Shown: piece by piece, positions 58-28,427 of the stretch
Numbering within the stretch: the first letter of the stretch is position 1
Layout of the letters: each line of letters starts with the position of its first letter
From: Reclinomonas americana ATCC 50394
Lineage: Eukaryota
NCBI GenBank assembly: GCA_048213135.1
Contig: PS015141.1
Coordinates: 70,131 to 103,757 of the forward strand
Length of the DNA: 33,627 nucleotides
Reading direction: 5' to 3'
Position numbers and translations under genes: made by a program
The notes under the pieces: model-generated
What the model was told of the DNA's origin: nothing
Database searches by the model: none
What the model saw: the letters and a program-made list of their open reading frames with translations, nothing else

Positions 58-512
58 GTGTGCGTCTTTGCGTACTACTACGTGCGGACATCGATGCGCG
101 AAATGACTGACTTTTTCCGCTTCACCGTGCACGTTGCGTGTGCATCGTCTGCTTTTTTTATTTGCTTGCTTGCTTCCCGAGACTCTTACGCGACGTCGGC
201 GTTTCGTGTGTGTGCTCGCAGACCCGCATGTTGCGTCATGATGGAAACATTCTTTTTGGGATCCCTCCGATCTCCGATTCTCACCTCCCTGGCATGCAGG
301 TTGGTTCCCTTCTTGTTCGCCGCTCTGTACTTGGCCGGAGTCTTGCCGCTGTTGCGCGTGTGCTATCCCCTTCGGCCCCTAGTCCCCCCCACTCGCCCAC
401 CCACCCCCTCGTCGTGCGCAGGAGTCAAGTGCTTGCTGGCGTCGGCGACGGCCTCGGCGCGCTGTGGACGGCTTTGGCCCTCAAAAAGGACGGCCACAAG
501 GTATTCGTGTGA
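58..512 (+). CDS. 3' part of a small multi-pass membrane protein (5' end lies before the window)
   Basis: Exons 58-132, 222-229, 300-350 and 422-512 join in frame to give VCVFAYYYVRTSMREMTDFFRFTVH-TRM-LVPFLFAALYLAGVLPL-SQVLAGVGDGLGALWTALALKKDGHKVFV*, with three hydrophobic segments. All three introns are GTTGCG..CAG. The last few codons could instead be spliced out. Confidence 0.7.
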
Positions 513-586
513 CACATCTGTGTCACTCACTCCTCCCCCGTCTCCTGGACAGAGTTGTTGTCATAAACAGTTTCATTATATCTCTA

Positions 587-3500
587 TTATCGTGGCAAGA
601 GTGGCTCCTGTAGTGGTGCTCCTCCTGCCTGCTCCACTTGCTGTTGTGGGAGTGGTGGTCTCGATTGGCGCCTGAAGCTGTCGTCGATTGGGAGCATCCG
701 AATCGACGTGCGGCTGCGCCACTCGTCATCCCTGGTGTTGTCGTTGATTCCTTTTTCGTCGTCCTCCCCATTATCGTCATCGTCATCGTCAACATCACCC
801 CCGTCACCATTGAGACGCGGAGTCGTGCTCGCATCGGTGGTGCCGTCGTCGAGTTCCAACTTGCGGCCACGAATGGAGGAGCGCACTCGCGTAAGCAAGT
901 CGCGCGCCCGCTGCCACATTTGCAGCACGATTGGGATGGCCAGCACGGCACACGTGACCGACACCAGGACGAGACCGGCCACTGTCTGGAAGCCCGTGTC
1001 CGTGCGCGAAGCAAACACACTGGAGATGACCACCATTGACGCCAAGGACACATTCTCCAGCATGTTGTTAACCGGACTAATGTACGCCGGCCACACGATC
1101 TGCACCACAAAGAACGATACGCAGGCCGTGAACAGAGCCATGGGCAGTGGTCCCAACGCGTCGTTTCTGGCCAGGGGGAAGAAAATGGCCAGCAGAATGA
1201 CGCGGCGCAACAGCTGCAGCGCCTCCCAGTAGATCATGTTTGGTCGGTAGTTGAGATACAGCGGCTCTGTGACACGCATATGCATGAGGGAACAATTTTC
1301 TCACTCACTCTCTCGCGCGTGCACACGTACCGTAGCGAACGCGGTTTTTCCGCGAGAACGACGAGGCACCGCCGTGGCGCTGCACGTACCACATGACACC
1401 GAAAAGGACAACGGGGAAAGCCAACAGCACGCCCAGAAAGAAGCCAAAGAAGACTCGCAGGCCGGCAAACACGCTGGACGGGTGGGGGCTGCACTGCACG
1501 CTCGGCTGCAGCAACACATACGACGCGGCACCGACAGACTTGCACGCAAACACGCCGATACACCTGTTCTCACACGGTGTCAGGGTCGATAAAGTCTCTG
1601 CATGGGCGACAGGACGCAACGTCTCCAACAGGCCCTGGTATGCACCTACAGCAGCTTGCACCAGTGAGTTCACATGCCACACAACCGTTGCCATCGTTTG
1701 AATGCACGCACCAATCGCAAACACAACCGAGCTGCGAATGTATCGCGACACCGAGGCCGTGGATGAGATGAATTGTCGCACTCGCATGAGCTTGTCTGAC
1801 GCAGGGGCATCTGCAGGCGGTCGAAGCCACAGGCGTAGCAATCGATGGATGGCAAAAATGCACCACAGCGCAACAAAGTTCGCCAGCGGTAGTAGCACTG
1901 TAGGATGTGTCAGCAGGCGGAGAGAAAGTAGATTTTACCACCTATACTGACCTTGTGTCAGGAGCTCGCCGACACCGTCGACAAAGAACGGGCACGATTC
2001 GCCGACGGGAATCCAGAACTTGACCAGGCGCGCCACATTGAGCACGGTGATATTCGGGTACCTGCGGCCGCCGAGCATGAACAGTCAAGCTAGTTCAGCA
2101 TTATACGAAGCTGTGCTGCGTCTTACACAAAACTCACCAGAGTAGGCACATGGACTGGAGAAAGAAGAAAATCATCTGTACCACGGCGCATTCAGTCACG
2201 ACGGGAAGCGAGAGTGCATCCATATGCGGCGGGTCTCGCGTACCTTGGTGGCTGCCACAGCTCCGCCTTGCGAGACCACGTGTTGCAGCAGTGCAATGAG
2301 GAACACTTTCAGGATCAGCCATGTCAGCGGCCAGGCGCTATTGTCGGTGCATTTGACACAGGAGGCATCCCATGATGCGAACCCGGGCTGCGCGTGTATG
2401 TGTGCGCGCGCAAGTGAGTTGCTAGTGCACAAAGTCGACTCGTGTGCGATGAATGCTGCTTACCAGGCACTCGCCACACAGCACAGAGGTCTCCTGCCGG
2501 TTGGAACCCGGTTCGCACAGCGATCCCCACGTTCCTGTGTGGCGGCTACTGTCAGAAGCCCATGCTTGCGGCAAAAAAAGGCAATCGGTGCAAACTCGGC
2601 GCACGAAACTTGCACCATCTGGCGAATTGCACCACGTGTACGGACACAACCATGTATCGACAAGTGCCGACGAGTTCGTCTGATTGTATGCTGCCAGAGG
2701 CCACGTCCAGTAGTTGCTCTCGATCAGCAGATTAGAACCTGTCGCATAAGCTCACAAATCAGTCACACGAGGCATTGATGAACGGAGTGCGTGCGTAACC
2801 TCCAGGACACAGTAGGTGTGGGTTGTCTGTACATGGATCACTGCCGCCGGTGGAGCACGAACACTTGACACACTGCTGATTGGAGACTAGGGTGCCGAGA
2901 TTGTACGAGTCGTAGGGGCACGTCTGCAGAGTCGCTCATGAGAAGTAATGCGCATTCTTTGTCTTCCGACTGTGAACATGAGATGACGCACCAGGCAACC
3001 GCGGTCATCTGCATACTCTTCGCCGACATCGCAGGGCGACAGGGGGATCTGAACATTCAACTGATTCTGGAGCGGCACACTCAGAGCAGCGATTTGCATC
3101 TCCAACATCAGCGGGCCACGACGGTCCGAGGCGTAGGGCACAACGATAATGCCGTCATCCGACGAAACGAGGCGTTGCTGCGGCCAGTTCAATCAGTCAC
3201 AGTGGTGGTGGTGGTTCGCCCACGCACAACACACAGCGACGACATGTAGCTCACCGCTGTTCGACACGCCGTGCAGTTCACTTGCACAATGAACTGCGCA
3301 CACGGCACACGTGTGAGCACCGAAAACCAACGAGTATGCACTTGCAGATCCACCACGCAACGCCGTCCAGTGTGCGTGTGCGGTATCCACTGACGTCCAC
3401 CAACTCCACTGTGACATTATACTCGGTTCCAGAAAACACAGGCACCACATCCGACAGCAGGCGCATCATGATCGGGGCTGTGCGAAGTGCGATGTGCTTC

Positions 3501-6500
3501 ATGAGCACAACGACGGAAACACTGGCAAGAAAGACACTGCCCGCTGCACGAAACTCGAGCCCATGTTGTTGCCGTACTCGGCACTGTTTGGACCAAACAG
3601 GCAGTTCGACAGAGTGCTTTGCGAGATTTGCGGCAGCGAGCGCAACACCGTGACCAAGGATGCTGGTGCCACACAACCTTGAGTCTGACAAAAGAACGCT
3701 GTCCATGCTTCGAAGGGGCTCTACATGCTTACCAGAGAAGAAAAGTGCTCCACCTCCACCACTTCCAGCAATATCTCCGCGAGCTCCGGCGCTGATATGC
3801 GGCGCGGATTAGCACTACTACTCGCAGTCGACGAGAGAGACAGAAAGGGCAGAATGGATGCTACGCACGAGAAAACGGCCGCGTTTCCACTAAAGATACT
3901 TGAGGAGATCGTCACGGCCGGAGAAGAGTACGTCAGCTGCCGCCGCAGCCCGAGAAACCCCGTTGAGTGAGCTCACGCACACGGGAGAGCGAAAAAGAAG
4001 CAAACACTGGCAACCAACGCAACAGCAATGGAGATGGCACCGCCGAGACTGGCCGAGTTGCTCGCGAACTCGGTGGCGCTCACTCGACAAGTGGCATAAT
4101 CATCATCCACAATGTTCGGCTGCGCGTTACCGCACCATCTACGTGTGAGACCCAACGGAAAAAGACGCAGGAAAAATGCGCCCCAAATATGTTGTCATAC
4201 CGGTTGCAAGAATGCCATGGCGCCACCAGAGCCTGCAGCACGCGCTGTACGGTAAGCAGCCTTGCGTTGTACACGATGTGGCTGTTGTTGCTCACCTTGT
4301 GCCGAGTTGCCAACAAACTGATTTCCAATGACAGTGACAACGGCATCCGAGTCAACGTACATCGCACCGCCATCGACTGCCGCCTTGTTGCTGAGAAACG
4401 TGCTACCGCTGAGCAGCAGAGCCGACAGATTGGTTCGCGCGGCAATCGCACCGCCACTCCAGGCGGCGGTGTTGACAGAAAAGTAACACGATACGCATTG
4501 ATACTGCGCCCCGTTCACCTGTGCATTATTGGAGAGGTGGTGAGAGTGAGCGCGCATCCACAAAATCTGATTGCGTGCAGACTACGATGACGCACCAACA
4601 CGGCGCCTCCATATCCCGCATCGGAGATTGCCGTGTTGTTGGTGAACACCGAGTTGATGGAGGTGCAGTTGGCGAGGAATGCGGCAGCAAGCATGCTGTG
4701 CGGAAAACAGTGAGGTCCATACACAAGCGACATACGCAAGTGGATAACAAAACGCAACAGCGCTCCTCCTCCTTCTTGTGTAGCGAGGTTCTGGCTGTAC
4801 GACGCCTTGTAGTCCAACCATGTTGCCAGGTCCAGAACCTAGCGAAAGAGCAGAGAGAGAGAGAGAGAGAGGAGGGTGAGCTCGCGCTGTACTGTCGCGC
4901 AGGGCGCGGGTGACCAGACATGTGCACGCAACAGCAACTGCGGTAGAGAATATTGAGGGAATGGCATGCGAGAATCGACAATCATGAGTAAGCCCGAGCA
5001 CGCTCACACGATGCTTCAACACGAGATGCACCTGCTCCACCACCGGAGGCACCGTTGACGGAGAAGATGCAACTGCTGCACGACGCGCTCGCTTGCTGCA
5101 CACGGACGTTAGATGTGTGCTTCAGCAGCAAACAAGCACCGAGACGGGACTCACTTGATCGACACAAATGGCCCCACCGCGAGTCATGGCGATATTGTTG
5201 TTAAAGTACGTAGATGAAACGGTGATGCTTGACAGCCCTGTGTGCGTGTCACGGTTACACACTGACGTAAGTCGACTGCGGCAGAGTGACCAGCACGCAA
5301 CCAGAAGCATAGATCGCTCTGCGTCACACATTCACACACACGCACACACGAGCCATTGAGAGAGCAGAGAAAGGTGACGTGAAGCACAGGTTGTAACCAA
5401 CCCGCCAAAAGCACCCTGCGCCGAATTGCCGACAATGCTGCACCCGGAGATCGACGCTGTCGAGTCCTCTGTTACGAAAGCCGCGTCAGTTGATTCGACA
5501 CGTTGGTATGGAATGCAATGTTGTAAGCGCACCGAATGTCGTAATGACCCCACCAAAGTTAGCGGCGTTGCCATACTGCAGGACAAAGTACGTTGTTTCA
5601 GAAGAGTTGCAAGAACAACCTCACAACAATCCTCCCTATGCACACCGCACCACAGTACAGTTCAGCAGTGTCACTGCGCTGTTGGCAATGGCGTGAATGA
5701 CGCCGCCGAACAGGGCGACATTCGAATATAGCGACGAAGAGACGATGTACAGTTGCTGTGCGAACGGCAAGTGAGTTCAACGAAAGAGTCCGTCCGACGA
5801 CCACTCGTTCGTGTGAACCCTCACCGCATTGCTTGCGGCATAGAAAGCACCGCCTGCATGTGAACATGGGGAAGGCTGAGTCGCCAGTCAGCAGTCATGC
5901 TTTCGCACGCAACACACACACACCTTGGCCGGTGTTTACGGCCGAGTTGCCTTGCACGGTTGTATTCTGCAACAGGAGTACAGCCACAGTTTCCGACACC
6001 GCCGCACCTCCTCCCTACACATACGTAAGTCAAGGTATGTACGGGTTATCTCAATCTCCCACAAACAGAAGTACCAGAGCGGCAGTGTTGAAGCTCAACA
6101 CAGAATCGGTCAGTGAAATGTGACTTGACCTGGTGAGAGTGAAAAAATCAGCGATAGTAGGATGGCAAGCGAAATCCGCGACGGTCACGCACGTGAGGCA
6201 AACGATTCCGCCGCCGAGGTGTATGGCTGTGCACAGCAGGGAGGGGGCAGTCGGCGACTGTCATGTCAGGAGTTAAGCAAGAGCAGATGTGACGCGCACC
6301 AGAGTTGTAGGTGATGGTGGACCGCGAGACATCCAGCAACTGATTGTTAACCGCATCCGAGAACCCTACCACACTCAAGAATGAGCATCACGTTCACGAA
6401 ATCTTTGTTACTCACATGCACACACACACACGCACCAGCGAGGCCAGCGCCATCGTACGCAGCATTGTACGACAGTGTGATGTTGATGAAAGATGCGGGG

Positions 6501-9500
6501 AGTGAGGCATAAATACCGCCACCAAAGAAGGCGTAGTTGCTGAAGAACTGTGAGTCGGTAATGTTGCCACCTGCAAAGCAAGGTCAGGGGAGATAAACCG
6601 AAAAGGAAAGCGTGCGTAGCAAAGGCAGTAACAAACCGCGCAGTAGGACGACAGCACCACCATATCCGGGTTGCTGCACCAGTGCCTCGGTGACAGAATT
6701 GCTGACGAACAATGACCGGCTCAATTTTCTGCCACAGATCACGACCATCGTGTCAGCGACAGCACGCAGAACATCAACAACTCGGAGCACATCATCAATA
6801 CGAAACACCACGTCGCTCAAGAGATACGCAGCACCTCCTATTTGGCTTGTTAGAATGCAGAGACGATACGGGATGGACAGAACGAAGGAGAGCACTTTTT
6901 TGTCTCACCTCCCGAGTACGTATCCGAAGGCGGAAACACAAGGTACCCGTCTTGCGAGAGACCGGGAGCGGTGCAGTTGACCACCGAGCAGCTGGAGAAG
7001 GTCACCTGGTCCACGGTGGCACCATCGGAGGCAAACACAAAGATGCCACCGCCGCCAATGTTGGAGGATCTGCGTGAATTAGTGGACCGTGTAAGCAAAG
7101 CCGGCCACAGTCGACATGTCGTCTACGCCAATGCACGCAACGGAATGTTGCTGCCACCGGCCGACGGGGCATTATTTTGCCCACCAGCACCCGAGTTGAC
7201 CACAGAGCAGTTGGTAAACTGCGTTTGCGAGATTGTGCCACCAGCCCTGTGCCGTCGTGGGAATGCGTGAGCAGGTGCGCTCGCTTGGCAAGCGTGCAAA
7301 CAACGGCTACACACCAGCCAGCAATGTACAGTGCACCACCTGCGTAGAAAGTGAGTAACGTGCGCGCACAAAGCACAGCGATCGTGCAACGCCTCACCGC
7401 CTGTATACGAGCCCCCAGTGCCGGCACTCATCAGCGCCCCCACCTGCACCAACACGATGTTAGAATTGACTGCCAACACACAAAAGAAAAAAAAGGTGAG
7501 CACACAACGTTATCTGCACAGTGCATTCACAAGAACAATAGCAGTAAGTCAGTTAGCGTCAGGGAGAGGCACAAGTGAGAAACAAAAAAGCTCAGCGCAA
7601 CTGGATCCGCCAGAGGATACGCGTGCAAGCTGCATCGGCCGAGTGTGAGAGCCGTAAGCGACAGCATTGAGATGGCAGACGACACAAACCATGTTGGATT
7701 GAAACCGCGATCGCGAAAGAGTCATGGTGCCGCCTGTGAGGAACATTCCACCACCGCCGAGAAAGCTCGCACCAAAGCCAGCCGTGTAGGAGGTGCCAGC
7801 GCAGTACGAGCCACCAAGGCCGCTGTGCGGTGCGGCACGCAGCAGTCAGGGTGAGGAGCGCGTTTGTGAAACGAGTTCAATACCCAAGACAAACCTGTCT
7901 GTCATGGAACAGTTGGTCAAGTAGAGCTGGTCGGCTGTTACGAGACCTCCGACGAGGATGCACCCGCCGCCAACAAAGATACCGGCCGAAGCGCACGTCC
8001 CTTGCGCTGTGGTGCGGCAATGAGATTAAAGGCGGATGTACATGCCGGTGACACAACGCGGAAAAACTACTTGCCGCTGCTTGTGTTATTCCTGCCGCCG
8101 TTGGAGACGTGGACGACCTGCAGCGAAAAACAACACAGCCTCGTTGTGTCACACTGCTGGTCGCACGAAGGGGGTGCGCAGTCTGCGAACCTGGCTGTTG
8201 CTGAAATGGAGATTTTGGAGCACCATGGGTGCGTTCGGCGAGCGTGCAAAGATAGTTCCTGGACACCCAAATCACGTGGGCCTGCTGTTTATGCACCCAC
8301 GGGGAACAAAAGTTCACTCACCACCACCAATGTACGGACCGCCGCCACCAGGTGCACTGGTCGCCGACAGAACCACGTTATTGTTTCCACCTGCAACTCA
8401 ATCGAGTCGGTGACAGCACAAAAATGGAGCTCATCGTGTATGTATGCAGATCTCACCGTTTCCGCTTGACGACACTGTGGAGTTGGTGAATTGGGACGAC
8501 GTTACGTTAAGCGCACTGTTGCTGTAGATACAACCGCCTGTCCAGTGCAACCGAAGATCAGCGACGCGCGCACACAACTAGGCACTGTCGCTTTTTCAAC
8601 TCGCCTCCGCACAACCCAACACTGTAGCCGACAGAGGAAGAGGCTGACGAATTCGAGCCGGCGTTGCAGATTTCGCTCACAGAGCAATACAGAAACTGGC
8701 TGTCCGTCACCGTCAGCGGACTCGCGGTGAAAATGGCGCCTGGGATAGAGGGGAAAAGAGCAATGAGTTTCCACCACCTGATATCGAGATACAAGCAAGC
8801 AAATGACGCACCGCCACCAGACTCGGATCCACCAAGTGCGGCCGATGTTTGAGCCAGCAAGTGGTAACTAATCAGTAGATACGCGGTGAGTGAGCGTCAC
8901 AGAGAAAGAACTGCAATGCGTGCGCACCTGCCACCGTTGGCTGAGTTGGTGAAGCGAGAATTCTCAAACAAACAATTGGACACGACAGCCAGCGTGGAAC
9001 CACTCGAGACAAACATCGCACCGCCGCCGCACAGCGGTCCACCGCTCCCTGCCGCACCTGGCGAGTCGCGAGAAGTAAGGCCCGGCCCAGACGGACACGC
9101 ACTCATACACGCACGCATGTGCAATACCTGCGACCGATGAGGAGTTACCACCGTTGCACAAGGTGGAGACGGTGGAATTCGTCATTGTCGAGTTCAGCAA
9201 AGCGAAATTGCCGCCATTAACAAACAAGGCTGCAAGCACAAAATGAGCGCGCACGACGGAAGCGCAATCTACGATGAAGGGTGGCGCACCACCACCACCG
9301 GAATTGGAACCAGCACTGGCCACGGTAGAGGTACCGACGCCGCCACTGCCACCATTGTTGGCGTTGATAAAGGTCGAGTTGACAAATGTTAAACCTGAAA
9401 GAATGGCAGACTGAGGGTCGACAGCAGTGAAGAATACGGCGCCGCCTCCGCAGGCTGTGCGTGGGGAGGAGAGAGACGTAAGTGACTTGCGGGTGCATAT

Positions 9501-12500
9501 CGAGGCACAGTGAAGGTGTGTGATCGGCAGACACGGAACTTGAGCCACCGCCCACCGCAGCACCCTGTCCGAACACTATGGCCGTTATCCCACTGTTGCA
9601 CACGTCCTGCGCGCAATCACGAAGGTCAGAAGGAGGGAATCACACAAGCCAAGAAAAAAGTGCACTCAACTTGGACCATGTTATCGATGAACGTGCAGTT
9701 GACGATGGCAGTCGAGACGCCTTGCATCTGCAAATAGAGAGCACCGCCACCGCTGTAGTCACCCCCTGCAAGAAAATCGTAAAGTTGATCGATAAGCACT
9801 GTGGTCAGTTGCACGGAGGAAATGACAACAAGGATTCGTACCGACGCCCGCAAGGCCGTAGCCGGTTGTACCGATGCCACCATTGGCCGAGTGTAATACC
9901 CTGCACCATGACCGAGGCAACGTGAGGTCACACAACCACCACCACCATCGCGCACCCACGGTCCACGTCACCTGTTGCCGATGAATGTGGTGCGAGAGAT
10001 TGTCGCATTTTGCACCGTGGACATTTCGCAGAACACGGCACCACCGCCCACATAGTCACCACCAGTCGAAACCTCAGACACTGGGGTCGACGGCGCGTTG
10101 CGATTTTGTACCCCACCAACGCCAGTGTTGATTACCCTGAGAGCTCCCACGTCAACAACAAATACCACCACAAGCTCGGACTGATTGAACGCACAGGTTG
10201 TCGCTGAAGTAAGAGTCGCTAATCAGAAGGCCGGTAACTGGACTGGCACCAGGCAGCGCAGGAAAGAAAATAGCACCTGCAAGCGCACGCCACGTGAGCA
10301 CGCATGCATACTTGCACAATGCTTCCAGAAGCGCACGCGAGTACCTCCACCGCAGGATTGCTGGCATCCACCGCCCACGTTTGACGATTGAGTACTGGTG
10401 CCACTCAACAGGCCCTGCGAATAGCTGCCACCATTCGCGCTCCCCGCGACCATGTTGCCGGTGAAAGTGGAGTTGGTGACAAACAGCTGGTCTCCACGTG
10501 CCATAATTGCGCCACCTGCACAAGAAGATCAGGATAGTATTGTCTTCCTACTGAGACGCACGCACTCCACACGTACCACCGACAAAACTCCCAGCTTGAG
10601 CAATCGGATTGGTGGAGGTAATCTGCGATGAGCATGTGAGTGGAGAGTGGCAGCGATCAGCTGAAGCAAGGTAGTTGTTTACGCAGACCGCCCAGTTGGT
10701 GCCACCGTTGCCGGTGGTGACGACTGAGTTATTGAACGCGGTGACACCTGTTACAATGGTGGCGCCAAACGCCAGCAGGGCACCACCTACACCCAGGAGC
10801 GCACTGGTGGGCCACAAAAACACCTCAGTGCAGCACAAACAATAAAAAACGAACCTCCACAGTTTACGCATCCTTGTGCGACGACAAAGGTCAGCGGTGT
10901 CTGAAGTTGCTCTGTCTGCTCGCTGTTTCCGGCGCTGCCGCTGTTCACAACTACGCGTGGTACAGAAGAAACATGAGACCACAATACATCTTCCCTGACT
11001 CTGAGGGAGAATGACAAACCGTAGTTGCCGATCATTTGCACATCGACCAAAGTCACAGCGAGTGTGAATAGCGCACCGCCACCGATTCCGGTGCCGCCTG
11101 TGGCAAGCGATCCACTGACGATTACCAGCACCGACCCAGAATTGCCGGTGTTTTGCACCGAGTTCCCCACAAACGTCGACGACGATATTGTGGCGAGTGA
11201 AGTTCCCGCAGGTAATGGACTCGCACTCAAAATTGCACCGCCGCCTACAAGCAACAAGGCATAGTGAGCAGTTTCACACGAGACTGCAATTCGCACGACC
11301 GGCCTCACCACACGAATTTCCTCCGACAGCCTGTGACAGCTGGAGCTGCGGAATGTTGTTGACATTAGTGACACTGCTGAACAGGCTCCCAGTGCAAGAA
11401 TTCAGCACTGCGTTGGCGGCGAAGCTGGAGTGCGAGATGGTTACGTTGGACATGACAAAGATAGCACCCCTGGAAAACACAGAGGTGTAAGACAGGAAGT
11501 ACAGTCGCACTCAAAGACAACTTTGCCTCACCCCCCGACGTTGTCACCACCAGAGTTTGCGGGAGGTAGCATGTTCAGGAACATTAACTGAGCATCGGAC
11601 GCAAACAGGGAGTTGGCGGTGTTGTTGACATAGTTGTTGGTGAACACAGACGTGTCGATGGAGGTCACCGCTGTGCGGAATGCGCGACCACAGACGCGTA
11701 AGAATGAACGAAATTATGATTCACGTGCACCGACCGCGCTCGACTCCACGCGTACCGTTGGCGAAGACGGCACCGCCCCCAATAAAGGAACCGCCAGAGT
11801 TCAAGCTTCCGCCACTGTTGCCGCAGTTGTTGACTTGATTGCCTGCAGTTGCGAGACAACAGTAAGAGCGGGTGCGCACGCACACACACGACCATCACCA
11901 CACGTTACAAACCAACAAACGTGGCGTTGGCAAAAGAGAGAGTGGTGGCCACAACCGCCAGCGCACCACCACCACTCCCGTAGCTGGCAACCACATTGCT
12001 CACAGAGTTTTGGTAGAACTGGCTGCTTAGCACGGACACCGAGGAAACCAGGTAGGCGGCTGCGGCACCGCCGAGTCCCACATTCGTACTGACGCTTGGC
12101 GTCTGCAAATTTCCGACGACGGTGCAGTTGGAGAAGCGCGAGTTGCTGATCGTCAGCGCAGTAGTCTGCAACGTCGGTGCCACCAGCAGCGCACCGCCCA
12201 TCGAGTTGCCGGCACACGCAATGTTGGAAAACGTGCACGACTCCACTTGCACTGCAGCCACAGTGGCCGTGATCAGCACTGCGCCACCGCACTGCCACGA
12301 AACCGGCGGCTGCGTCGACGCGTTGGCAAAACTCGAACGCAGCACTTGCACACTGCCTGTTCCACCACCACCACCACCACCACCACCCACAATCAGGCCG
12401 CGCGCGCCAGTTACTTGGCAGTCGGCGACCACCACTGACGGCTGCGCTGCTCCGAGGACGGCGGAGACGAACGCGCTCTGCTGCTCAGCAGCGCTCAATG

Positions 12501-13009
12501 TGGTCGAGGGAGACACTGAGAACTGCAGTCCCTGCAGCACCAGCGACGCACTCGACGAAGTGAACGCCGGTAGCGAAGTGGCCACCAGGTGCACACCGCC
12601 GACCGTGGTGCTGTTCAGCAACACTCGCGACTGACCGAGTCCATCCAGCGTCAGCGACGAAGTCCCCAACGTGTACACTCCGTCGGTGAGAAGCAGCGTG
12701 TAGTCGCCAGTGCACGATGCAAACGTCATGGAGGTGAGCGCCGTACTCAGCGAGCAGGCCGTCGCAACATCCGCACCACAAGGTGCGTTCGTCAATCCCA
12801 TCGGCGACACATTGACTGCGGCCGCGGGGGAAGGTGAGAACGAAGATGCTCTCACGCCAGCAGTGTAGGTGCACGCAACTCAGACACGATGTCGCGGCGT
12901 CCACTGCCACAAACGTCAGCGTAATGCTCAGCAGCAACGCGGCTATTAGACATGGGGGTCGACGACGCGCATGACGACCGCCGAGAGGAGGCGGCATCAC
13001 CACTCGCAT
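587..13009 (-). CDS. Very large multi-exon surface/membrane protein: signal peptide, many Pmp-like beta-helix repeats (FxxN...GGA[ILV]), Cys-rich segment, C-terminal multi-TM domain, acidic tail
   Basis: N-terminal hydrophobic stretch LIAALLLSITLTFVAVDA. Recurrent repeats such as FSNIACAGNSMGGALL, FVGNSVQ..GGGALF, FNNNIAMTRGGAI, FTNNTAISDAGYGGAV and FLSNKAAVDGGAMY. Then CPYDSYN..CVKC..CPGGSNLLIESNYW..LCGECLPGF, TM helices and LYLNYRPNMIYWEALQLLRRVILL. Stop at 587-589; ATG at 13009 or 12997. Many junctions were checked in frame, but not all. Confidence 0.8.
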
Positions 13010-15478: not shown

Positions 15479-17899
15479 ATGGGCATTTCGGGCTCAAGTG
15501 GAAGGCAACTGGTGTTGGAGGTGCGGGCAATGCGTTTTCTCCACTAATGCACACTCGGGGAGGGGGTTTTTGTCCGACGCCACTCTCTCTCTTTCTCTTT
15601 CTCTCTATGTGTGTGTGCAGGTGGTGGAGCGCGACATTGAGGACACACACGAGGAGGTCATGGTGCTCACGTATGACACGGATATCCGTGAAGCACCGGG
15701 TGCGTGGCACATCATTTTGTTGTTATGTATGTCTCTCTTTGTTTCCTCCTCACTCATTTTTCTGCAGCTCATTGGCGTGCTGCGCTTGGTGATCGTGCTC
15801 TGGAAGCGCTGCTCCAACGTTGCGTGACACAGAGACCTTTCATTCACTCTCCTTGACATTGATTTTTTCTCCTGTCTCTGACGCACACAGAACCCGCTCA
15901 TGGCGTTGCGTCTCTCAGTCTCTCTCACACACATACACACACACTCATGTCTTCCCGCTCATTGGAATTATCGTCGTCGCACACAGATCCGCTGTTGTGA
16001 TGTGAGAGAGGGTGAGCCACTAGCTCCGCGTGTCAAGTTTGTGGTGCTGGTTTCGCTGCAGGAGGAAGGCCATGAGTCTGGAGAAGAGGTCTCAGTTCAC
16101 ATCCCGGCTCCTCGCGCAGTGGTGGAGCATCGATGACTGACTTTGGGGCGCGCAGGCCAAGGGGCGGATTTCGCGAGACTTGCGACAGGTGCACCATTTT
16201 GTGGCCAGCCAGCGTGTGCGGTCGCTGTCGTTGCCGCTCTTCATGTACACTGTGTTGCCGCCGAGGGAGTTGTGTGGGGGTGATGTGCTGGCATGTGTGG
16301 GGGAATTGCAGGCTGACGTGTGCACGCCACAGAGTCGTCGAGGTGTTTGCGTCGGAATTTCGCACGGCATTCGACTACATTGGCACCGGCGCTGCCGATG
16401 CGGCAACTCAACTGACCCGTGTTGTGGTGTGCGTCAAAGGTGGCGGCAAAATACGGCAGGTGAGTGTTGGAAGCTGCCTCGGGAGAGCGAGTGCACTGCT
16501 ATGTCGCTGAATCTGCATTGCCTCGTCCAGCTGTTCAGCCAGTACATAGCGAGCATGTTCCCGCAAGAGGCCGCTCCTCCCGTGTGGGAGCTGTTCTTCT
16601 CCGATCGCCAGTGGTACCCGCTGAAGCGAGAGGTATCCGACTACATCGAGAATGCGACTGGTGACCTTGTTCCGCTGCGTATCTGCCCGGCGCCCGACAA
16701 TCACGAGTGTCTGCGCGTCCTTGTTTGCCGCTCGCGAGATGAGGTGTGCACACACGCACACGTATTCCGTGCACTCATCAGGTTGACTTACTGTATTCCC
16801 TCTCCTCCTTTGTGGTTGCGCCGCAAGGTGGTGGACTTTACAGCCAATCAACGGTATGCGATCCGGCGACGCGAACCTGCGGTGCCGGTGCGATCACAAT
16901 CGTCGCCTCCGACTTCGTCTTCGACACCAGCTGCCGTGGCAGGATCTCAATCGGCGGCACCACCGAATCCTCCCGCGGCAGCAGCAGCACTGACATATGT
17001 ATCGTCCCCCTCGCCACAATCACCGTCACGGCCAGCACCTGCAGCCGCCGCCGCCGCAGCAGCAGCAGCAGCTCCGCCTCCTGCGTCCCCTGCGCAACAA
17101 GCGCCTGCATCGCAAGCAATGTTCGATACTGTACCAGAGGTGAACGTCTGTATGCTTTTTCTGGTAATGCGCACATGAAGCTCTAACAACCTGTCTGTTG
17201 TTGCCATGACAGGTGTTTTCGCGGTCTAGCATGGCGGAGCTGCACCCAGCGCACCTGACGTGGATGAAACCTGGAGGCGTTTTTGTCAAGGGCGCCGTCT
17301 TTGTGCGCGGTTCTTGGGATAGGTATCAGCAGGCGATTCGACTTCGTGCCTTGGGGCACGATCGCTACGAGGTGACAATCCGAGTGCCGGCTGGGTTCTA
17401 CTTCTACAAGGTCAGTGCCTTCGTGTATTATGTACATGGAACCACGCTAACGGAAGCTTGGTGCAGTTCACGGACGACCAGTCTACCACACTGACGAGCG
17501 AGCGCATCAAGGTTGTCAAAGAAGAAAGGACAAATCTTCCGTTCCACCCGCTGGAGGTGCCGGTGACGTTCAGTGTGGCTCGACAGCACGAGCGACAGCA
17601 CACCGTGCTGGAGTTCTCGGCCTCTAATGGTTACTTTCTGCGCGCATTCTTTCCGAAGACCGATGAAGGCGAGGCACTGGCGCGAGCCATCCAGGAGAAG
17701 AGCAGGTTGCGAGCGTGTTTTTCGTCTTTTTCTTTCTTAAGAGTATCGAGCTTACTTGTCCATGCACAGCCGAGCACCACCTGACCCTGTCGTCTTCTTC
17801 ACTGGCCGTTGGCATGGAATCGAACTGAAGACAGAACCATCGCAACTACCGGACCCACAGTGGTGCGCGGCAGCGCTGGACCGAGTGTCGGCGCTTTGA
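15479..17899 (+). CDS. Multidomain protein: MGxxxS myristoylation motif, WWE-like domain, Pro/Ala linker, CBM48 (AMPK-beta-type glycogen-binding) domain, degenerate Deltex C-terminal-like domain
   Basis: Starts MGISGS. WWE-like VWELFFSDRQWYPLKREVSDYIENA...VVDFTANQRYAIRRR. CBM48-like LTWMKPGG..VFVRGSWDRYQQAIRL..YEVTIRVPAGFYFYKF. C-terminus RAFFPKTDEGEALARAI..WHGIELKT..LPDPQW. Stop 17897-17899 after intron 17706-17769. Exons around 16180-16335 are uncertain. Confidence 0.7.
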
Positions 17900-18328: not shown

Positions 18329-19019
18329 TTACACGTCCTGCATGATCTTGCGCTCAATGCACAGGCGGTTCACGGCGTTGTCGGATTGGCCCTACAAGAG
18401 CAAAGACAACGACGAAACGGATGAGTAACACAGGGGCATGGATACGAGAGAGAAAGGCACAGACAAACCTTGGCGCGGATGAAGCCGCAGAGTGCGATCG
18501 TGTCGCTTGAGCCAGTGTACACACCATCGGCGTTGATCTGGCCAATGTTGAACTGCACCGACGCGTGATCCGTCGCAGTGATCAGGCGGTTCGTTGCCGA
18601 GCTGCGTGACACAAAGGAGAGAGGGAGGAGAGCACGATGAGTTGCCATGTCGTGCGCTCCTCCTTCCCACTCTCACACGCCTCTCAATCTTTCTCTCTCT
18701 CTCTCTCTCTCTCACGCACACACTCACGACGAGCACTGTCGCATGCACACACAAAGACGGAGAGCTTGTGGCATGCGAGTGCCGACTGACACTATAAACA
18801 GCCTTCTCTTCCACTCGTCTCGTCTCTTTGTTGATCGACACATCGACACATGGTTGCACGTAAGCGACTGCGTGTGTGCGTGCTTGCTGCAGGGGGGCCA
18901 GTCCTCCGCCATGACATGCACATGACATGCACCCCACCCTCTCTCCTCTCTGCGCCCTCGGATACTCACCACTTGCGGGGAATGTACAGATCGACCTTCT
19001 TGCCCTCGTCGTTGATCAT
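18329..19019 (-). CDS. RPS21: 40S ribosomal protein S21 (eS21)
   Basis: Exons 19019-18970, 18601-18469 and 18391-18329 give [37 protein letters not shown]...[19 protein letters not shown]...*. Confidence 0.97.
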
Positions 19020-19147: not shown

Positions 19148-20390
19148 ATGGTAAATCCCTCATCAGCAGACACTGAACGGGTTCCACACACAAGGGGGAG
19201 AGAGAGCGAGTCACACACAAGGGGAGGGAGAGAGAGATGCGCGTGTGTGTGCGCGTGGGGAAGTTTGTGGCGCGTGAGTACGATGCGCATGTGCATGGCG
19301 CTGACATGCGCCCCGTTGTTCCCTTCCGCCTCCTCTCTTTGCGCGTGCGCTGCATGGTGCATGTGGTGTTGTGCTGTGTGTGCGACAGATCAGCGAAGAG
19401 AGACGCGTGAGAGTTGATGAGGGGGAGAAGTGTGTGTGTGTGTGTGTGCAGAAGTAGTGTGTGACTGGCCATGGTCGTTCACCTCTTTGTGTGAGTGACA
19501 GCACGTCAGGAGTATGCACGCATCACTGTGCGAGCGAGGGGGCTGTGATTGTTCACGTGTCATGACGACTGGTGTGGTGTTGACTCGCTCGTTGCTTCCA
19601 TCCAGGCGGAGAAGAAGAGCAAGTCAGAGAACCCGATGCGCGAGCTCCAGGTGGGCAAGCTCGTGCTCAACATCTCGGTCGGCGAGTCGGGCGATCCGCT
19701 CACCAAGGCGGCCAAGGTGCTCGAGCAGCTGAGCGGCCAGGAGCCCGTCCTGTCCAAGGGTCCGTTTTTTGTCAGTCGCACATGCATGCATGCCATTCTC
19801 CTCCTTCTCGTGTCATGACACCTCTCCTCCCCTCCCCACAGCTCGCCTCACCATTCGCCAGTTCGGTGTGCGCCGTAACGAAAAGATTGCGTGCCACGTG
19901 ACTGTGCGCGGTGAGAAGGCCAAGGAGCTCCTGCAGCGCGGCCTCCGCGTCAAGGAGTTCGAGCTCAAGAAGGAGAACTTCTCAGCCACTGGCAACTTTG
20001 GATTTGGTGCGTGCGCCCACATGCACGCACACAACAGTGCTGGATAGCAGGGGACTGACTCGTGCGCGCGCGTTTGTGCAGGCATTGATGAGCACATTGA
20101 TCTCGGCATCAAGTACGACCCGTCGACTGGTATCTACGGCATGGACTTCTACGTGGTGATGGAGCGCCCCGGTTTCCGCGTGGCGCGCCGCAGGCGCGCG
20201 AACTCGCGCATTGGCACCAGCCACCGCATCACGCCACAGGAGACGATGGAGTGGTTCAAGAAGGTGTGTGTTTTTTTTTGGCATCATCTTCACGAAAGCA
20301 GCAGGGGAGAGGCGAGAATGGTTGGTTGGCAGTGGCTCACGTGAGTGATTTTTTTTGCGCATGCAGACCTACACTGGCTTCCTCGTCTAA
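19148..20390 (+). CDS. RPL11: 60S ribosomal protein L11 (uL5)
   Basis: [68 protein letters not shown]...[31 protein letters not shown]...TYTGFLV*. The start is inferred as an ATG-only exon (19148-19150, donor GTAAAT) with an intron to 19605; an alternative ATG is at 19471. Confidence 0.95.
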
Positions 20391-20613
20391 ACTATGGCTC
20401 GCTGCTTGGAACGCTTCCAGTGACTCCCTGTTCACCACTCTCCCGCCACTCCGATCCAGCCATTGCTTGTCGTATTATCTCTGCCGCAGAGGGGGTCCCT
20501 TTGAAGCACCGTAAAACACACAAACAACAGAAAAACAATTGTCACGGGGGAGGGGGAGGGGAAGGGTAGGAATTCCATCTTCCATTCGTGGGTCGGAAGA
20601 TCAATTCACGCAA

Positions 20614-22298
20614 ATGAGGTGGTTGTCGAGCCAAGCCACTCGGGCTCCTGCCGCGTTTTTCGATGTGTGCATTGCCGGTGGCGGGTTGGCCGGCTGTGCA
20701 TTCGCCGTGGCTCTTCGTTGCGCGTTCTGCCTCTCCACTCTCTCACGCATCCTCCGTGCCCAATCTCAAGTTTAAATGATTCGCAGAGGCGCATCCCATG
20801 ACACGGCATCTGCGCGTGGCCATCGTGGATCCCGCTCCCTCATCACCTCCACCGACCAGCACCGCAGACAACAGCACGCGAGTGCATTCGATTCGCACCA
20901 GTGCACTCACTCCATCGTCGAGACGATTCTTCGAGCGTTGCGTTGTCCACACAGCAGTCTCTCTCTCAGTCTCACGTTCTCTCTCACATGCATGTTGTCG
21001 CAGAGAGTGGTGTGTGGCCACGCATGGAGGAGCTCGGCGCCTCGCCATTCCATCACATGCGCGTGTGGGACGAGGTCGGTGGCGGCACGATTGGTTTCGA
21101 CAACTCCAAGTCGCCGCTGGCACACATGGCGGAGAATGACCGCCTGCAGGAGGCGCTGAATGAGCGACTGGGCGACGACGCGGTGACGTGGTTCCGCGGG
21201 GTCGGAGTGAAGAATGTGAGCGGAGTGTTTCAGCATGCCAGTCCGGCGGCCACTGTGCACTTGACGAACGGGACCACCATTGATGCCTCCTTGCTGGTGT
21301 GCGCTTGCCACGATGATAATGATGTGGCTGGTTTGCTGATGGGTGGGGCATGCAGGTGGCCGCCGACGGTGCTGCGTCGCGAGTGCGGCAGTGTGTCGGC
21401 ATTGCGTCCACGTCGCGGGCGTATGGGCAAAAGGCGGCGGTGGCGAGTGTGGTGCATGAGCCGGTGGCGCAGCGCACTGCGTATCAGCGATTCCTCACCA
21501 CCGGTCCACTGGCGCTGCTGCCGCTCACCGACACCGTGAGCAATGTGGTGTGGTCGACGACGGTGGACGAGGCCGACGAGCTGGTGGCGTGTGCGCCCGA
21601 AGAATTCGTGCGCCGCGTGAACGATGCCTTCACGCGGCCCACCGCCGCACCACCAGTGTCGGGTGTGTCGGCTGTGCTGTCGGCCATCTTCCCACGACCC
21701 GAAATGATTGCCGGCGCTCCGTTGCCGCGACCACCACAAATATTGCAGTTGGAGCACCCGCAGCGTGGCGCATTCCCACTGCAGCTGATGCACGCACAGC
21801 GATATGTCACTCATCGTTGTGCGCTGATTGGGTGAGTTGTTGGTGACTCGGGGCGAACGAGTGCATGCCCTTGTTGTGACTCTTGCGCACTGGTGTACAG
21901 CGATGCGTGCCACGTGGTGCACCCGTTGGCCGGCCAGGGCCTCAATCTCGGCCTCGGCGACGCCGAATCGTTGGCCCGCGTAATCGCACGCACGGTGGAG
22001 ACCGGTGGCGACATTGGCGCAGTGACGGCGTTGGAGGACTACGAAAGCGATCGGCGACCGACCAACAGCATGATGACCCTCGGCATGCACCTCATCAAGG
22101 GCACCTTTGAGACGAATCAACCGGCGCCATTCGCCATGGCTCGCAGCCTCGGCATGTCGCTGTTGAACAATCTCGATTTCGCGAAGGTATACTTGTTGTC
22201 GAGATTGTGTGTGGGGGGACACGATTGGTGACTCTCATCTGGGTGCGCAGCGTCTGATCATGCAACAAGCGTCGGGCGAGAACGTGCTGCGAAGATGA
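20614..22298 (+). CDS. COQ6: Ubiquinone biosynthesis FAD monooxygenase (COQ6/UbiH family)
   Basis: Short transit-like N-terminus; FAD motif [92 protein letters not shown]. Stop 22296-22298. Confidence 0.92.
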
Positions 22299-22477: not shown

Positions 22478-24905
<2,428 letters not shown>

Positions 24906-25180: not shown

Positions 25181-25879
25181 TTACTTGCCCACTTGTGCCA
25201 CCACCAGATCCACCACCTCGGAGGGCGACTCGGGGAACTTGAGCTTGCGCGGTGGTCCCTTCTTGACACCACTCCACACCAACGAATCGTTGACTGCAGG
25301 GCGCAGCAACGAAGAGTAAGGCGAACAGCAAAGAACAGTAGCTGCAGAAGGCTGAAGGGAGGCGTACCGGTCACCTCAAAGCTGCCTCGCCTGCAGAGAA
25401 ACGGAGTCAGTCGATGATAATGAATGCATGCATGCACGTGATGATTGCTCTCTCTCACCGCGGCTTGTCAGTGTTCAACGCGACCGTGAGGTCCGGGAAG
25501 CGGTCCTGCAACGCCGCCACGACGGCGTTTGCATGCCGCTTGTACACGGATCAGCTCTTGCTGTGGTAATGCACGTCAGCGCATGACACACTCTACAGAG
25601 GAGAGAGAGAGAGAGATCGCACCAAAACTCGATGGCCACACGCATGCCCGACGCTCCTGCCGTCGACGACGAAGCGGTGGGTGTAGTCGCAGTCGCAGTC
25701 TCCTTCTTGGCGGTGGCGGCCTTGAGGGCGCGCTTGCCTCGCTTGGTGGGCGGAGCTCCCTCGGCCTCTGCCGACTCTGCTTTCACATCCTGCTCCTCCT
25801 CTGCATCCTCTGCCACCTCTTCCTTCTTCACCGCGGGCGCCTCGGAGGCGGCAATCTTCGACGCACTTCGTTTGCGCAT
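25181..25879 (-). CDS. SELENOH: Selenoprotein H (Rdx family, CxxU) with in-frame UGA at 25551-25553
   Basis: After removing intron 25622-25561 the frame reads MRVAIEFC-K-S-[TGA]-SVYKRHANAVVAALQDRFPDLTVALNTDKPRRGSFEVTVNDSLVWSGVKKGPPRKLKFPE..*. This matches the SelH signatures CxxU, KPRRGSFEVT and KKGPPRKLKFPE. The N-terminal extension is Lys/Arg/Glu-rich. Confidence 0.93.
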
Positions 25880-25952
25880 GGGAGGAGAAAATGCAAACAC
25901 GAAAACTCCGACCGGAGAGTTCGCTGAAAAAAACCTCCGCCTGCGCTGCTTT

Positions 25953-27384
25953 TTATGCATGCTTCTTGTCCTCTGCGCTGCTGCGCTCCTTTGCCGCCAT
26001 GCCCCCGAGAATCGAAATCGCCAGTCTCTCGCTCAGCCATCTACCGGGTCGTCGTGAGAGAGAGACGCGAGCGATTGCACGATTGCAGCAACAAAACACG
26101 CAACGTCGGCACCAGAGTCAAGGCCATCAATTGCACCTGGTGCGCCCAGTACGGCATGAAGCTGTTGGAGCCTCGGGCGACGCAAGCAATGGCCGAGCGC
26201 GCAAAGGTGCGGGCCGAGCACTCGAAGGTGGTCTCCTTGGTGACGTGCTTGCTACTGAGCGGCGTCACCACGGTCGCCGGCAACACCGAGGCCACTCGGA
26301 CCAGCGGACCGTACGGTCGGCATTCAAGCGACAGGGCACGAGAGAAGAAGTCCACAAACGCCTTGGTGCCGCAGTAGATCGAGAGGTAGGGGCTCGGCAT
26401 GAGACCGACCATCGACGACAGGTTGAGAATGAGCCCGAGCCGGCGTTCGCGCATGCGCGGCAGCACCACGTGCGTCATGCGCAGCAGTGACTGATTATTG
26501 AGGCGCAGCGTGCGGCACGAGGCCTCCACATCCGTATCGGCCACCTCTGTGCACCACCACCACGCACATCAGCACCTCAAGCGAACCAACCAGCCGCGAG
26601 TGCACCACACACCTCGCATGTCGGCCTCGTTGCCGCCGACATTGTTGACCAGCAGCGTCACATCCAACGGCGCCAGGAACTGCTCCACCGCAGCGTAGGT
26701 GCCGTCGAGGTCGGGCGAGCTAAAGTCGACCGACAGCACACGACTCTCCACGCCGTGATCTTGCAAGTGTGGAGGTGAGAAGCGCGCGACAACTCAACGA
26801 AAAAGGTTATACACTGTACTCACCACGTCGAATGTCGGCAGCAATGGCCTCCATCTTGGCGAGCGTGCGGCTGATGATGGCCACGTTGAAGCCGAGAGCG
26901 GCCAGCTCCAGCGCAAACGCCTTGCCCTGTGACAGAGAGAGAGAGAGAGAGACGGGTCATCGCCAACGACATATTCACACTCCACAGGATGCAAGAGTCG
27001 CAACAATGCCGTCGGAGCCACCAGTCACTGCGTGCAACATGAGACACACACACACACACGAGGCATACAGCACAGGAGAGGTGCAAGACTCACCGACCGC
27101 CCACACGCCCTGCAAGAGTGCACACAATGCAATCATCAGTCACACATTTCTCCGCATTCTCTCTCCCTCACACACACACACTCGCGCACTCTGTCTCCTC
27201 TCTCACGCCCACGTGTGTGCACCTTGCGAGGCATCCACGGAGCGAGCGCCTTGCGCAGATTCTCATCCTTCATCGGTCCGAGCACCGAGAAGCGCACCCA
27301 TTGCACAGTGACCCACACCCACTTGGCCACAATCAGCGCGCCCACCACGCCAAACACCCAACACAAGCCGCACGTGACTGACAT
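25953..27384 (-). CDS. SDR of the very-long-chain 3-ketoacyl-CoA reductase / 17beta-HSD12 type, ER membrane
   Basis: N-terminal TM segment; [42 protein letters not shown]; catalytic YCGTKAFVDFFSRAL; PYWAHQ. The spliced C-terminus ends KKHA*, a dilysine ER-retrieval signal. Confidence 0.9.
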
Positions 27385-27440
27385 TCGTGTTGTGATGACA
27401 ACAGAACAGAGAGAGGACTTTACGAGCGCGTAGGACGCAA

Positions 27441-28427
27441 TCACAAACGGTGAATGGTGTGGTGATCGGTGACGGCCGACAAGTCGTCGAGTGAGTCCCA
27501 GATGCGATACAAGAACTGCTCCTGGATCTTGAAGAACCAGGGTGAGAGCAGCACATCGTGGCGATCGGCGTCGCGAATGAAATGCTGCATCTCCTGCTTG
27601 GTAAAGTATCGCGTCTCCTTGATCTCGTTCGGGTTGGCCTCGTGCGACACGTTCTTGCGCACCACCAAGATGTGATCGACTGCATAAAGGAGGGGGGGAG
27701 TGTGTGACTACAAGAAAGGCAGTTGCTTGGTTGGTCGTTCACGCGCGCAACTCTCGTGCTCGCCCCACACGCCATCCGACGGCGCCATGTAATGCAACCG
27801 CGTAATGTACGTCATGTCGTCGGTGCTCACATCGGTGATGTTGAGCTCCTGCTCCAGCTTGCGCACTGCTGCTCTCTTCACGCCCATGTTCTGCGGCAGC
27901 TCGCTGTCCATCTCCTCCGGGTAGAACAGCGGGTGTGAGCAGCACGTGTTGGTCCAGTAGCCGGGGAAGGTGATCTTGGAGTCGGCGCGCTGGTGCATCA
28001 GCAGCCGGTTGTGCGAGTCGAAGATGAACACGGAGAAGGCGCGATGCAGCATGCCCTGGCTGATGTTGCTCATCAAGTGGCCTGCCCAGCATTCAGCACA
28101 TGGTGCATGCAACATGCAGAATGGAATCGATGCACGCACGCAACAGGTCTGCTTGGTCGCACTGCCAATGGGATTGTCGTCGATATCGACCAGAATGCAC
28201 TCCTCCTTCATCAGTGCCACCTGCACGGCATCAAAGCCCTCCAGCTCCGGGTCGACGGGCTCCAGCGGTCCTTCGGTCAGCGCGCTCATGCTCTTCCTGC
28301 GTGCTCCTAATGGCGATGCGACGCTTGTCAGAGTGCGTCTCCACAGGCCACCATTACTACTACTGATGGCGAGAGGAGAGCGAGTGCGAGCGAGGAGAGA
28401 GAGGAGGCTGCGCGACATGTGCGCCAT
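27441..28427 (-). CDS. IDI1: Isopentenyl-diphosphate delta-isomerase, type 1
   Basis: EECILVD..D..IG..TK..CHL; LHRAFSVFIF; QRADSKITFPGYWTNTCCSHPL; GVKRAAVRKLEQEL; WGEHEIDHIL; PWFFKI; ends IHRL*. Introns 28144-28082 and 27751-27680. Confidence 0.96.

Follow-up and report, generated by a model that had tools for sequence, protein, structure and literature searches.

Genes and donor forms in the window

The stretch of DNA analysed here (hereafter the window) comprises 33.6 kb of contig PS015141.1 of Reclinomonas americana ATCC 50394 (positions 70,131 to 103,757), has a G+C content of about 57% and carries short introns at high density. Its 5' splice sites, or donors, are the subject of this report. 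An initial annotation had pointed to 24 sites GTTGCG or GTTACG, and to a GTTCCG at 24067, as intron starts displaced from the usual donor pattern; the positions and strands given for them are all correct, and each of these donors does resemble an ordinary donor of this genome plus one extra T. Donors of the form GTT[GAC]CG will be called class II and the remaining, ordinary ones class I. Coordinates are those of the window, and a colon marks the border between exon and intron. The genes that bear most on the question are the following, the first four being recognised through their homologs:

27441-28289, minus strand: IDI (isopentenyl-diphosphate isomerase)
about 25950-27384, minus strand: SDR/ketoacyl-reductase-like gene
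about 20614-22257, plus strand: UbiH/COQ6-family hydroxylase
about 22563-24905, plus strand: apparent zf-UBP-sirtuin-2 fusion
about 2100-12950, minus strand: giant beta-helix/PMP-like gene of roughly 50 exons

Class II introns fixed by homology

Junctions were placed with a spliced protein-to-DNA aligner (BLOSUM62) whose sole demand on donor and acceptor was GT..AG, with no donor consensus. Homologs shorter than 180 amino acids (aa), longer than 650 aa or scoring below 80 were left out, which kept all 118 of the IDI and all 104 of the UbiH/COQ6 homologs, 84 of the 120 sirtuin homologs and 137 of the 150 found for the SDR gene. Rival gene models were then forced and every homolog was re-scored. 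A gene model without any knowledge of a donor consensus (donor-blind model) was used besides. Homology fixed 11 of the 25 noted sites as donors, in the IDI, SDR, UbiH/COQ6 and zf-UBP-sirtuin genes:

28082..28144, minus strand: IDI intron 1, donor T:GTTGCGTGC, 63 nucleotides (nt); 106/118 homologs; restores TKQTCHLM
27680..27751, minus strand: IDI intron 2, donor A:GTTGCGCGC, 72 nt; 103/118 homologs; restores WGEHEIDH
26927..27004, minus strand: SDR intron, donor T:GTTGCGACT, 78 nt; 89/137 homologs; restores TGGSDGIGKAF
26041..26104, minus strand: SDR intron, donor C:GTTGCGTGT, 64 nt, acceptor uncertain; 15/137 homologs (weak)
20717..20786, plus strand: UbiH/COQ6 intron, donor C:GTTGCGCGT, 70 nt; 38/104 homologs, against 25 for a competing donor at 20707
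20937..21003, plus strand: UbiH/COQ6 intron, donor C:GTTGCGTTG, 67 nt; 40/104 homologs, against 20 for a competing donor at 20917
22971..23046, plus strand: zf-UBP intron of the sirtuin gene, donor G:GTTACGTGC, 76 nt; 5/84 homologs; the donor-blind model picked 22947
23144..23220, plus strand: zf-UBP intron, donor C:GTTGCGTGC, 77 nt, followed by a 12-nt exon; 5/84 homologs; the donor-blind model agrees
23606..23662, plus strand: sirtuin intron, donor T:GTTGCGTGC, 57 nt; 48/84 homologs; intronless model lower for 75/84
23802..23859, plus strand: sirtuin intron, donor A:GTTGCGCAC, 58 nt; 83/84 homologs
24067..24135, plus strand: sirtuin intron, donor A:GTTCCGTGC, 69 nt; 77/84 homologs; intronless model lower for 84/84

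When the SDR gene was modelled without the intron at 27004, the score was lower for 93 of the 137 homologs, tied for 43 and higher for 1; without the intron at 26104, whose donor was joined to an alternative acceptor at 25989 in 8 of 137 homologs, it was lower for 73, tied for 40 and higher for 24. The forced rival to the UbiH/COQ6 donor at 20717 scored lower for 65 homologs, tied for 20 and higher for 19 (n=104), and each of the rivals to 20937 scored lower for 90 of 104. Few votes were possible for the zf-UBP introns at 22971 and 23144, because a zf-UBP domain is present in no more than 6 of the 120 sirtuin homologs listed; removal of the latter intron restores DLSV-WCYK-CDSYI. The conserved motifs on which the initial annotation had relied (T-C-HL, WGEHE-I-DH, GGSDGI:GKAF and DLSV:WCY) read as it claimed, and its GTTCCG at 24067 is a donor as well. 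After intron removal, frames are open across 240, 267, 90+242, 454 and 174 residues.

All 31 introns of the homology-supported set, the 11 of class II included, are GT...AG. In the 24 introns read by eye, both classes have branch-like motifs of the form CT(G/C)A(C/T) some 16-33 nt upstream of the acceptor, and a pyrimidine-rich stretch is found ahead of the (C/T)AG acceptor, as in U2-type introns. The acceptor type is common to both classes: 20 of the 24 introns have C at -3, and 16 have G at -4. Judged by these signals, the class II introns are genuine GT-AG, U2-type introns. The usual acceptor in the window is (G/A)CAG; that of a homology-supported SDR intron at 26760 (minus strand) is AAG.

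Donors of U12-type introns are of the (A/G)TATCCTT type and go together with a conserved branch motif near the 3' end. Membership of the class II introns in that group was rejected: the motif is found in none of the 31 donors, and their 3' regions resemble those of class I.

Two discrete donor forms

Class II accounts for 11 of the 31 homology-supported donors, and for 11 of 23 supported introns outside the ribosomal-protein genes, as compared with 63 of the 4693 GTNNNN sites of the window (1.3%; binomial p=1.7e-13), so that the claim of a mainstream donor class holds. GTTGCG itself was observed 9 times among the 31 donors, against 0.64 expected from independent position frequencies, an excess that the initial annotation had supposed. 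In 28.6 kb of oriented genes, GTTGCG[TC] occurs 29 times in sense and once in antisense, while the control words GTTGCC, GTTGCT and GTTGCA have no sense/antisense bias. The class I consensus is G:GT(G/T/A/C)NG(T/C), with G almost always as the last exon base, and that of class II is H:GTT(G/A/C)CG(T/C), often followed by GC. As far as can be read from sequence, the genome has two discrete donor forms.

GTTTCG[TC] (9 sense, 1 antisense) and GTTGTG[TC] (16 and 3; oriented genes of the whole window in both cases) also lean to the sense strand, and a few donor-blind predictions have A:GTTTCGTG, A:GTTGAGTG or C:GTTGTGTG as donor; the shifted class may therefore extend somewhat past GTT[GAC]CG.

It could be argued that chance motifs, wrong gene models, a T inserted through systematic misassembly, or mobile-intron copies have produced the class. 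GTTGCG is not rare in the window (45 copies, 37 expected), and six of the noted sites are known by motif alone. An artefact of this kind is nevertheless scarcely credible in view of the 11 junctions fixed by homology and the 29 to 1 strand bias. A blind T-insertion error would show on the antisense strand too, because unaltered [ACT]GTGCG[TC] is frequent on both strands (53 and 31), and on these two grounds an assembly-error origin of the extra T was ruled out. Together with the comparison of intron sequences and positions given below, this largely refutes the artefact explanation.

The last exon base

The two classes differ in the base that precedes them. In the homology-supported set, G ends the exon before 19 of the 20 class I donors and before a single one of the 11 class II donors (Fisher p=2.6e-6), and 10 of the 11 supported donors without a last-exon G belong to class II. 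Donor-blind predictions for genes outside 18300-29800 have G at this place in 0 of 10 class II and 25 of 37 +5G donors (p=1.2e-4), this test comprising 87 predicted introns, of which 40 fall in neither group, many of these 40 probably being model errors. Without any gene model, a base other than G precedes 28 of the 29 sense GTTGCG[TC] sites (p=0.0007). The anticorrelation of donor class with -1 G that the initial annotation had proposed looking for is thus present within the window, and its count of 20 sites in 24 without -1 G is exact, the four preceded by G being 17706, 22971, 2799 and 5301. The link of donor class to the last exon base is a new finding that goes beyond that annotation: class II serves the sites at which the codon rules out G as last exon base.

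Genes for ribosomal proteins, in whose introns the class had been noted as absent, served as controls:

18332..19019, minus strand: RPS21, two introns, donors G:GTGAGT and G:GTTTGT; Pfam S21e positions 1-16 and 18-61 on neighbouring exons
19606..20392, plus strand: RPL11, three introns, donors G:GTCCGT, G:GTGCGT and G:GTGTGT; Pfam L5/L5_C positions continuous from 47 to 49; 174-aa spliced frame
28697..29758, plus strand: ubiquitin-like-RPS27a, three introns, donors G:GTTCGT, G:GTGAGC and G:GTGAGT, the first two junctions placed by reading of the sequence; Pfam S27a positions 1-23 and 25-44 on neighbouring exons

None of these eight introns is of class II and G precedes all eight (p=0.03 against the other genes; small sample), in agreement with the earlier statement.

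The rule on the last exon base bears on one way of reading an ordinary donor plus one T, a description that a bulged register matches literally. Here standard U1 would pair with G+1 and U+2, the U at +2 or +3 would bulge, and G+6 and U+7 would pair in place of G+5 and U+6; bulging at +3 (or +2) has been established for human sites (Tan et al. 2016, PMC4856993). A bulged site would gain from a last-exon G, yet G stands at -1 in only 1 of the 21 class II donors of both sets, which is below the base frequency of 29% (p=0.008). Moreover, the extra T reduces the predicted stability of the duplex. This explanation is accordingly held to be improbable. A register shifted by one base fits better than a simple bulge, since the bulged site would still profit from the exon G that is here avoided, and it refines the systematic bulged pairing proposed earlier.

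Origin of the class II donors

A single scan with IDI exon 2 gave five metagenome loci, and the relatives compared are the IDI genes of three of these (L001, L002 and L003), which lie on anonymous eukaryotic contigs of 29-52% G+C and are 63-72% identical to the IDI of the window. Introns after residues 49 and 159 of IDI, both in phase 1, are common to the window and the metagenome loci, the first being found in position and phase in all three and the second in L001 and L002, so that these positions are old. At the shared positions the relatives have the same last exon base as the window, T (in a Cys codon) and A (in an Ile codon), and their donors are ordinary ones (T:GTGCGT, T:GTATGT, T:GTACGT, A:GTAGGT and A:GTAAAG); none of the eight IDI introns of L001-L003 has a class II donor. 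Two GTTGCGC sites are present at L003, outside the IDI gene and without the appearance of donors.

Class II introns are not especially alike (mean pairwise local score 13.3, as compared with 13.6 for class I and 11.8 for shuffled sequences). Since the relatives share position and base with ordinary donors, and since the class II introns lack such mutual likeness, the latter are old introns whose donors changed in place. The shared-position test covers two of the 11 class II introns, those of IDI.

An introner or other mobile intron family was considered and rejected, there being no shared full-length sequence and two IDI positions being shared with other eukaryotes; the same two observations speak against mobile copies as a source of artefact.

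Further candidate sites

Taken as intron starts, the 24 GTTGCG/GTTACG sites do not all have the same standing. Ten are those fixed by homology above (28144, 27751, 27004, 26104, 20717, 20937, 22971, 23144, 23606 and 23802; 26104 weakly), and for another eight the evidence is the donor-blind model or frame continuity:

351..421, plus strand: candidate class II intron in a small membrane-protein-like gene without homology, T:GTTGCGCGT; donor-blind model and frame continuity
230..299, plus strand: candidate class II intron, T:GTTGCGTCA, no homology; donor-blind model; doubtful because the preceding exon is of 8 nt
1564..1620, minus strand: candidate class II intron in a membrane-protein gene, C:GTTGCGTCC; donor-blind model with acceptor 1489; acceptor 1564 continues an 85-aa frame
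2739..2799, minus strand: candidate intron in the giant gene, G:GTTACGCAC; frame continuity
3937..4023, minus strand: candidate class II intron in the giant gene, T:GTTGCGTTG; donor-blind models; the frame runs through a GGAI-type repeat
4696..4758, minus strand: candidate class II intron in the giant gene, T:GTTGCGTTT; donor-blind model and frame continuity
12816..12879, minus strand: candidate class II intron in the giant gene, past a signal-peptide-like first exon, A:GTTGCGTGC; frame continuity into a 302-aa frame; the donor-blind model took an in-frame GT 6 nt upstream, at 12885
15819..15890, plus strand: candidate class II intron in a gene without Pfam match, C:GTTGCGTGA; donor-blind model

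The remaining six noted sites, all GTTGCG motifs, are putative intron starts:

133..138, plus strand: called as an intron solely by a two-class donor model (circular)
15905..15910, plus strand: the donor-blind model picked 15910
17706..17711, plus strand: several acceptors fit; no homology
4927..4932, minus strand: the donor-blind model has 5031 with the same acceptor, 4839
5296..5301, minus strand: would require a 17-nt exon; the donor-blind model has 5378 with the same acceptor, 5238
14983..14988, minus strand: the donor-blind model picked 14999

Four class II candidates came in addition to those listed earlier, the last of them (9539) being GTTCCG:

30911..30981, minus strand: candidate class II intron in a coiled-coil gene, A:GTTGCGTGA; donor-blind model; the coiled-coil frame continues
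7470..7601, minus strand: candidate class II intron in the giant gene, A:GTTGCGCTG, acceptor uncertain; donor-blind models (acceptor 7444 or 7470)
7070..7141, minus strand: candidate class II intron in the giant gene, C:GTTGCGTGC; donor-blind model
9455..9539, minus strand: candidate class II intron in the giant gene, A:GTTCCGTGT; donor-blind model

A model with a two-class donor matrix gave 25 class II donors among 111 introns, a figure that is circular and is not counted as evidence.

Other features of the window

The closest match to the IDI of the window in the protein collection searched is 76% identical and the named top matches, of chytrid, blastoclad and choanoflagellate type, are about 65-67% identical; the IDI protein of the window itself is absent from that collection. 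Two runs of N are assembly gaps, at 28633-28652 (20 bases), which adjoins the IDI gene on its upstream side, and at 29156-29207 (52 bases). RPS27a (28697-29758, plus strand), which has an assembly gap in its middle intron, is fused to a strongly diverged ubiquitin-like domain rather than to standard ubiquitin.

The zf-UBP domain and the sirtuin-2-type deacetylase appear to form one gene (22563-24905, plus strand). The connecting intron, 23404-23515 with donor G:GTTCGA, was placed through the frame and the gene model, not by homolog votes; the two-domain architecture is also found in 6 of the 120 listed homologs. Within the zf-UBP domain, the 12-nt exon 23221-23232 (plus strand) codes for WCYK and is flanked by a class II intron and then by an intron with donor G:GTTCCT, its junctions having been voted for by five zf-UBP-bearing homologs.

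The top word-based matches of the UbiH/COQ6 gene (20614-22257) are bacterial proteins of UbiH/UbiF type (about 50% identity over part of an exon), with few eukaryotic COQ6 among them, a bias that may stem from the picking of candidates by the search alone. In the giant gene (about 2100-12950, minus strand), short exons code for beta-helix or chlamydial-PMP-like repeats and the first exon is signal-peptide-like. Its Atlas features point to Beta_helix/Chlam_PMP clusters, and single exons used as queries gave no Pfam match.

Recognition of the class II donor

If class II is displaced by one base, it takes on the pattern of class I, G-(G or T)-T-N-N-G-Y. The G found at +5 in 18 of 20 class I donors would correspond to the G at +6 in 11 of 11 of class II, the base composition at +6 of class I (T14/C5/A1) to that at +7 of class II (T7/C3/A1), and the G at +7 of class I (8 of 20) to that at +8 of class II (8 of 11). 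The mechanism we favour is a single reader that acts by U1-type pairing and would bind both donor forms alike, class II in a register displaced by one position; the G with which the intron begins would substitute in the pairing for the last exon G, and cleavage would take place just before the first GU of the bound heptamer. We infer both U1 as the reader and the register, and regard the proposal as an even call. The loss of the preference for G at the last exon base is what a shifted register predicts, and it is found in all three comparisons made above (1/11 as against 19/20, 0/10 as against 25/37, and 28/29). Counted by hand against the standard U1 arm, which may not be that of the host, the shifted register gives 4 Watson-Crick and 2 wobble pairs and the standard register 2 and 1.

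Several observations weigh against a single reader. With the standard U1 arm as printed in PMC4856993, which again may differ from that of the host, class II duplexes average a predicted -0.94 kcal/mol, as compared with -6.69 kcal/mol for those of class I, which is far from a stable shifted duplex, and the human example of a shifted register given in that source is far stronger (-6.5 kcal/mol). Deletion of the extra T strengthens the class II duplex to -2.46 kcal/mol, so that standard U1 thermodynamics offers no reason for the extra T. The core of class II is nearly always G-C-G, while that of class I is mainly GAG or GTG, and GTTGAG[TC], which would be the shifted counterpart of the commonest class I donor, shows no excess (4 sense, 4 antisense); both the G-C-G bias and the missing excess are left unexplained by a single reader. 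The sample, furthermore, is a single 33.6-kb window, and the set of 31 introns includes weak (26104, 22187), inferred (23404) and hand-read (28723, 29012) entries. Because the predicted pairing to the standard U1 arm is very weak, shifted recognition by one reader would be expected to have lineage-specific help, such as a base change in the U1 arm or a U1-associated protein, and a lineage-specific adaptation of 5' splice-site recognition, as the initial annotation had suspected in proposing variant U1 or U6 snRNAs or U1C/LUC7-type factors, is plausible.

It can also be the case that class II constitutes a dedicated second 5' splice-site code, in which about one third of the introns would be read by a non-standard U1 arm; we put this forward tentatively, as falling well short of an even chance. 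It may take the form of a U1 whose arm departs from the standard at position 8 or 5, or of a second U1-like small nuclear RNA (snRNA) matching GUUGCGU(GC), and such a reader may serve precisely those old introns whose protein fixes a last exon base other than G. U11, which reads the distinct donors of U12-type introns, provides a parallel. In the specific version in which this snRNA or changed-arm U1 pairs unshifted with GUUGCGU(GC) while ordinary U1 reads class I, the explanation is unlikely. It does account for a motif that is long and tight (+3 to +6 are fixed by definition, with G at +8 in 8 of 11 and C at +9 in 7 of 11), that barely pairs with the standard U1 arm, and whose strict C at +5 standard U1 leaves unexplained, and it suits a class that is discrete and not the tail of one distribution (0.64 expected, 9 observed). 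The likeness to class I over about eight positions when shifted would, on the other hand, be coincidental, and the avoidance of a last-exon G would have no explanation; acceptors and branch-like motifs are, besides, alike in both classes. No such RNA was seen in the search, which was confined to the window: an Rfam scan gave zero matches at gathering thresholds and, at E<=1, two chance-level cis-regulatory matches and no snRNA.

Conservation of the motif in spite of weak predicted RNA pairing would also suit a guidance by protein, or a recognition independent of U1, in which U1C, a LUC7-type protein or another RNA-binding protein recognises UGCG(U) close to the 5' end of the intron and offsets the missing exon G. 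LUC7 proteins are reported to set two 5' splice-site classes according to exon-side and intron-side strength (PMC11842720). RNA pairing agrees better with the constant spacing between GCG and the point of cleavage and with the resemblance to class I after a shift, and this possibility is rated slightly below the bulged register.

Significance and comparison with known systems

The displaced donor form appears to be an abundant, rule-governed class that covers nearly every supported intron without a last-exon G. Shifted and bulged U1 pairing has so far been a rare exception in human, examined site by site with engineered U1s. A genome of this kind would offer a natural system in which to study the choice of the cleavage site under off-register U1 binding, the handling of an extra base by U6, and the co-evolution of splice signals and snRNAs. 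On the practical side, gene prediction that relies on training with GT(A/G)NGT donors would put as many as one third of the introns of this genome in the wrong place.

Our word search of the literature found no lineage with an abundant shifted donor class, sequence logos and supplements being beyond the reach of such a search, and among the items listed those on shifted, bulged or noncanonical U1 sites concern human, worm, yeast or tunicate, while none of those listed for the donor motif itself deals with splicing, judged by title. The closest known system is the human one, in which shifted and bulged U1 registers are experimentally established (Tan et al. 2016, PMC4856993). In the human shifted register (Roca & Krainer 2009, via the same source), the first G of the intron pairs at the place of the last exon G and cleavage occurs at the first GU. 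As in class II, these sites keep GU at +1/+2, have an extra U at +3 and have their U1 pairs moved by one position. They are rare, all validated non-canonical registers together amounting to 1.5% of 201,541 sites, and the human example pairs strongly after the mismatch (-6.5 kcal/mol). Class II, by contrast, accounts for 11 of the 31 supported introns; its base at +5 is C, and its predicted pairing to the standard arm is very weak. The human bulged and asymmetric-loop registers described there also have one additional nucleotide between the GU and the G/U that pairs with U1 C4/A3; they should favour a last-exon G, which class II avoids.

Two donor forms side by side are also known from the introns read by U11 and U6atac. 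U12-type introns, which have undergone a massive expansion in Physarum, have a second, discrete and tight donor motif that fits U1 poorly and coexists with ordinary introns in the same genes, as class II does, but the class II donor is not the U12-type motif, and the branch-like and acceptor signals are equal in both classes of the window.

A division of donors by exon-side and intron-side strength, comparable to that between class I and class II, is made in the 'left-handed' and 'right-handed' LUC7 classes (PMC11842720); these are presented there as graded variants of one register, whereas class II has an extra base and another consensus. Tunicates with non-canonical introns and changed U1/U6 (PMC13326754) share with the system proposed here a lineage-wide change in how the start of the intron is read. 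They abandon the GT/AG rule, while the window keeps GT-AG in 31 of 31 supported introns.

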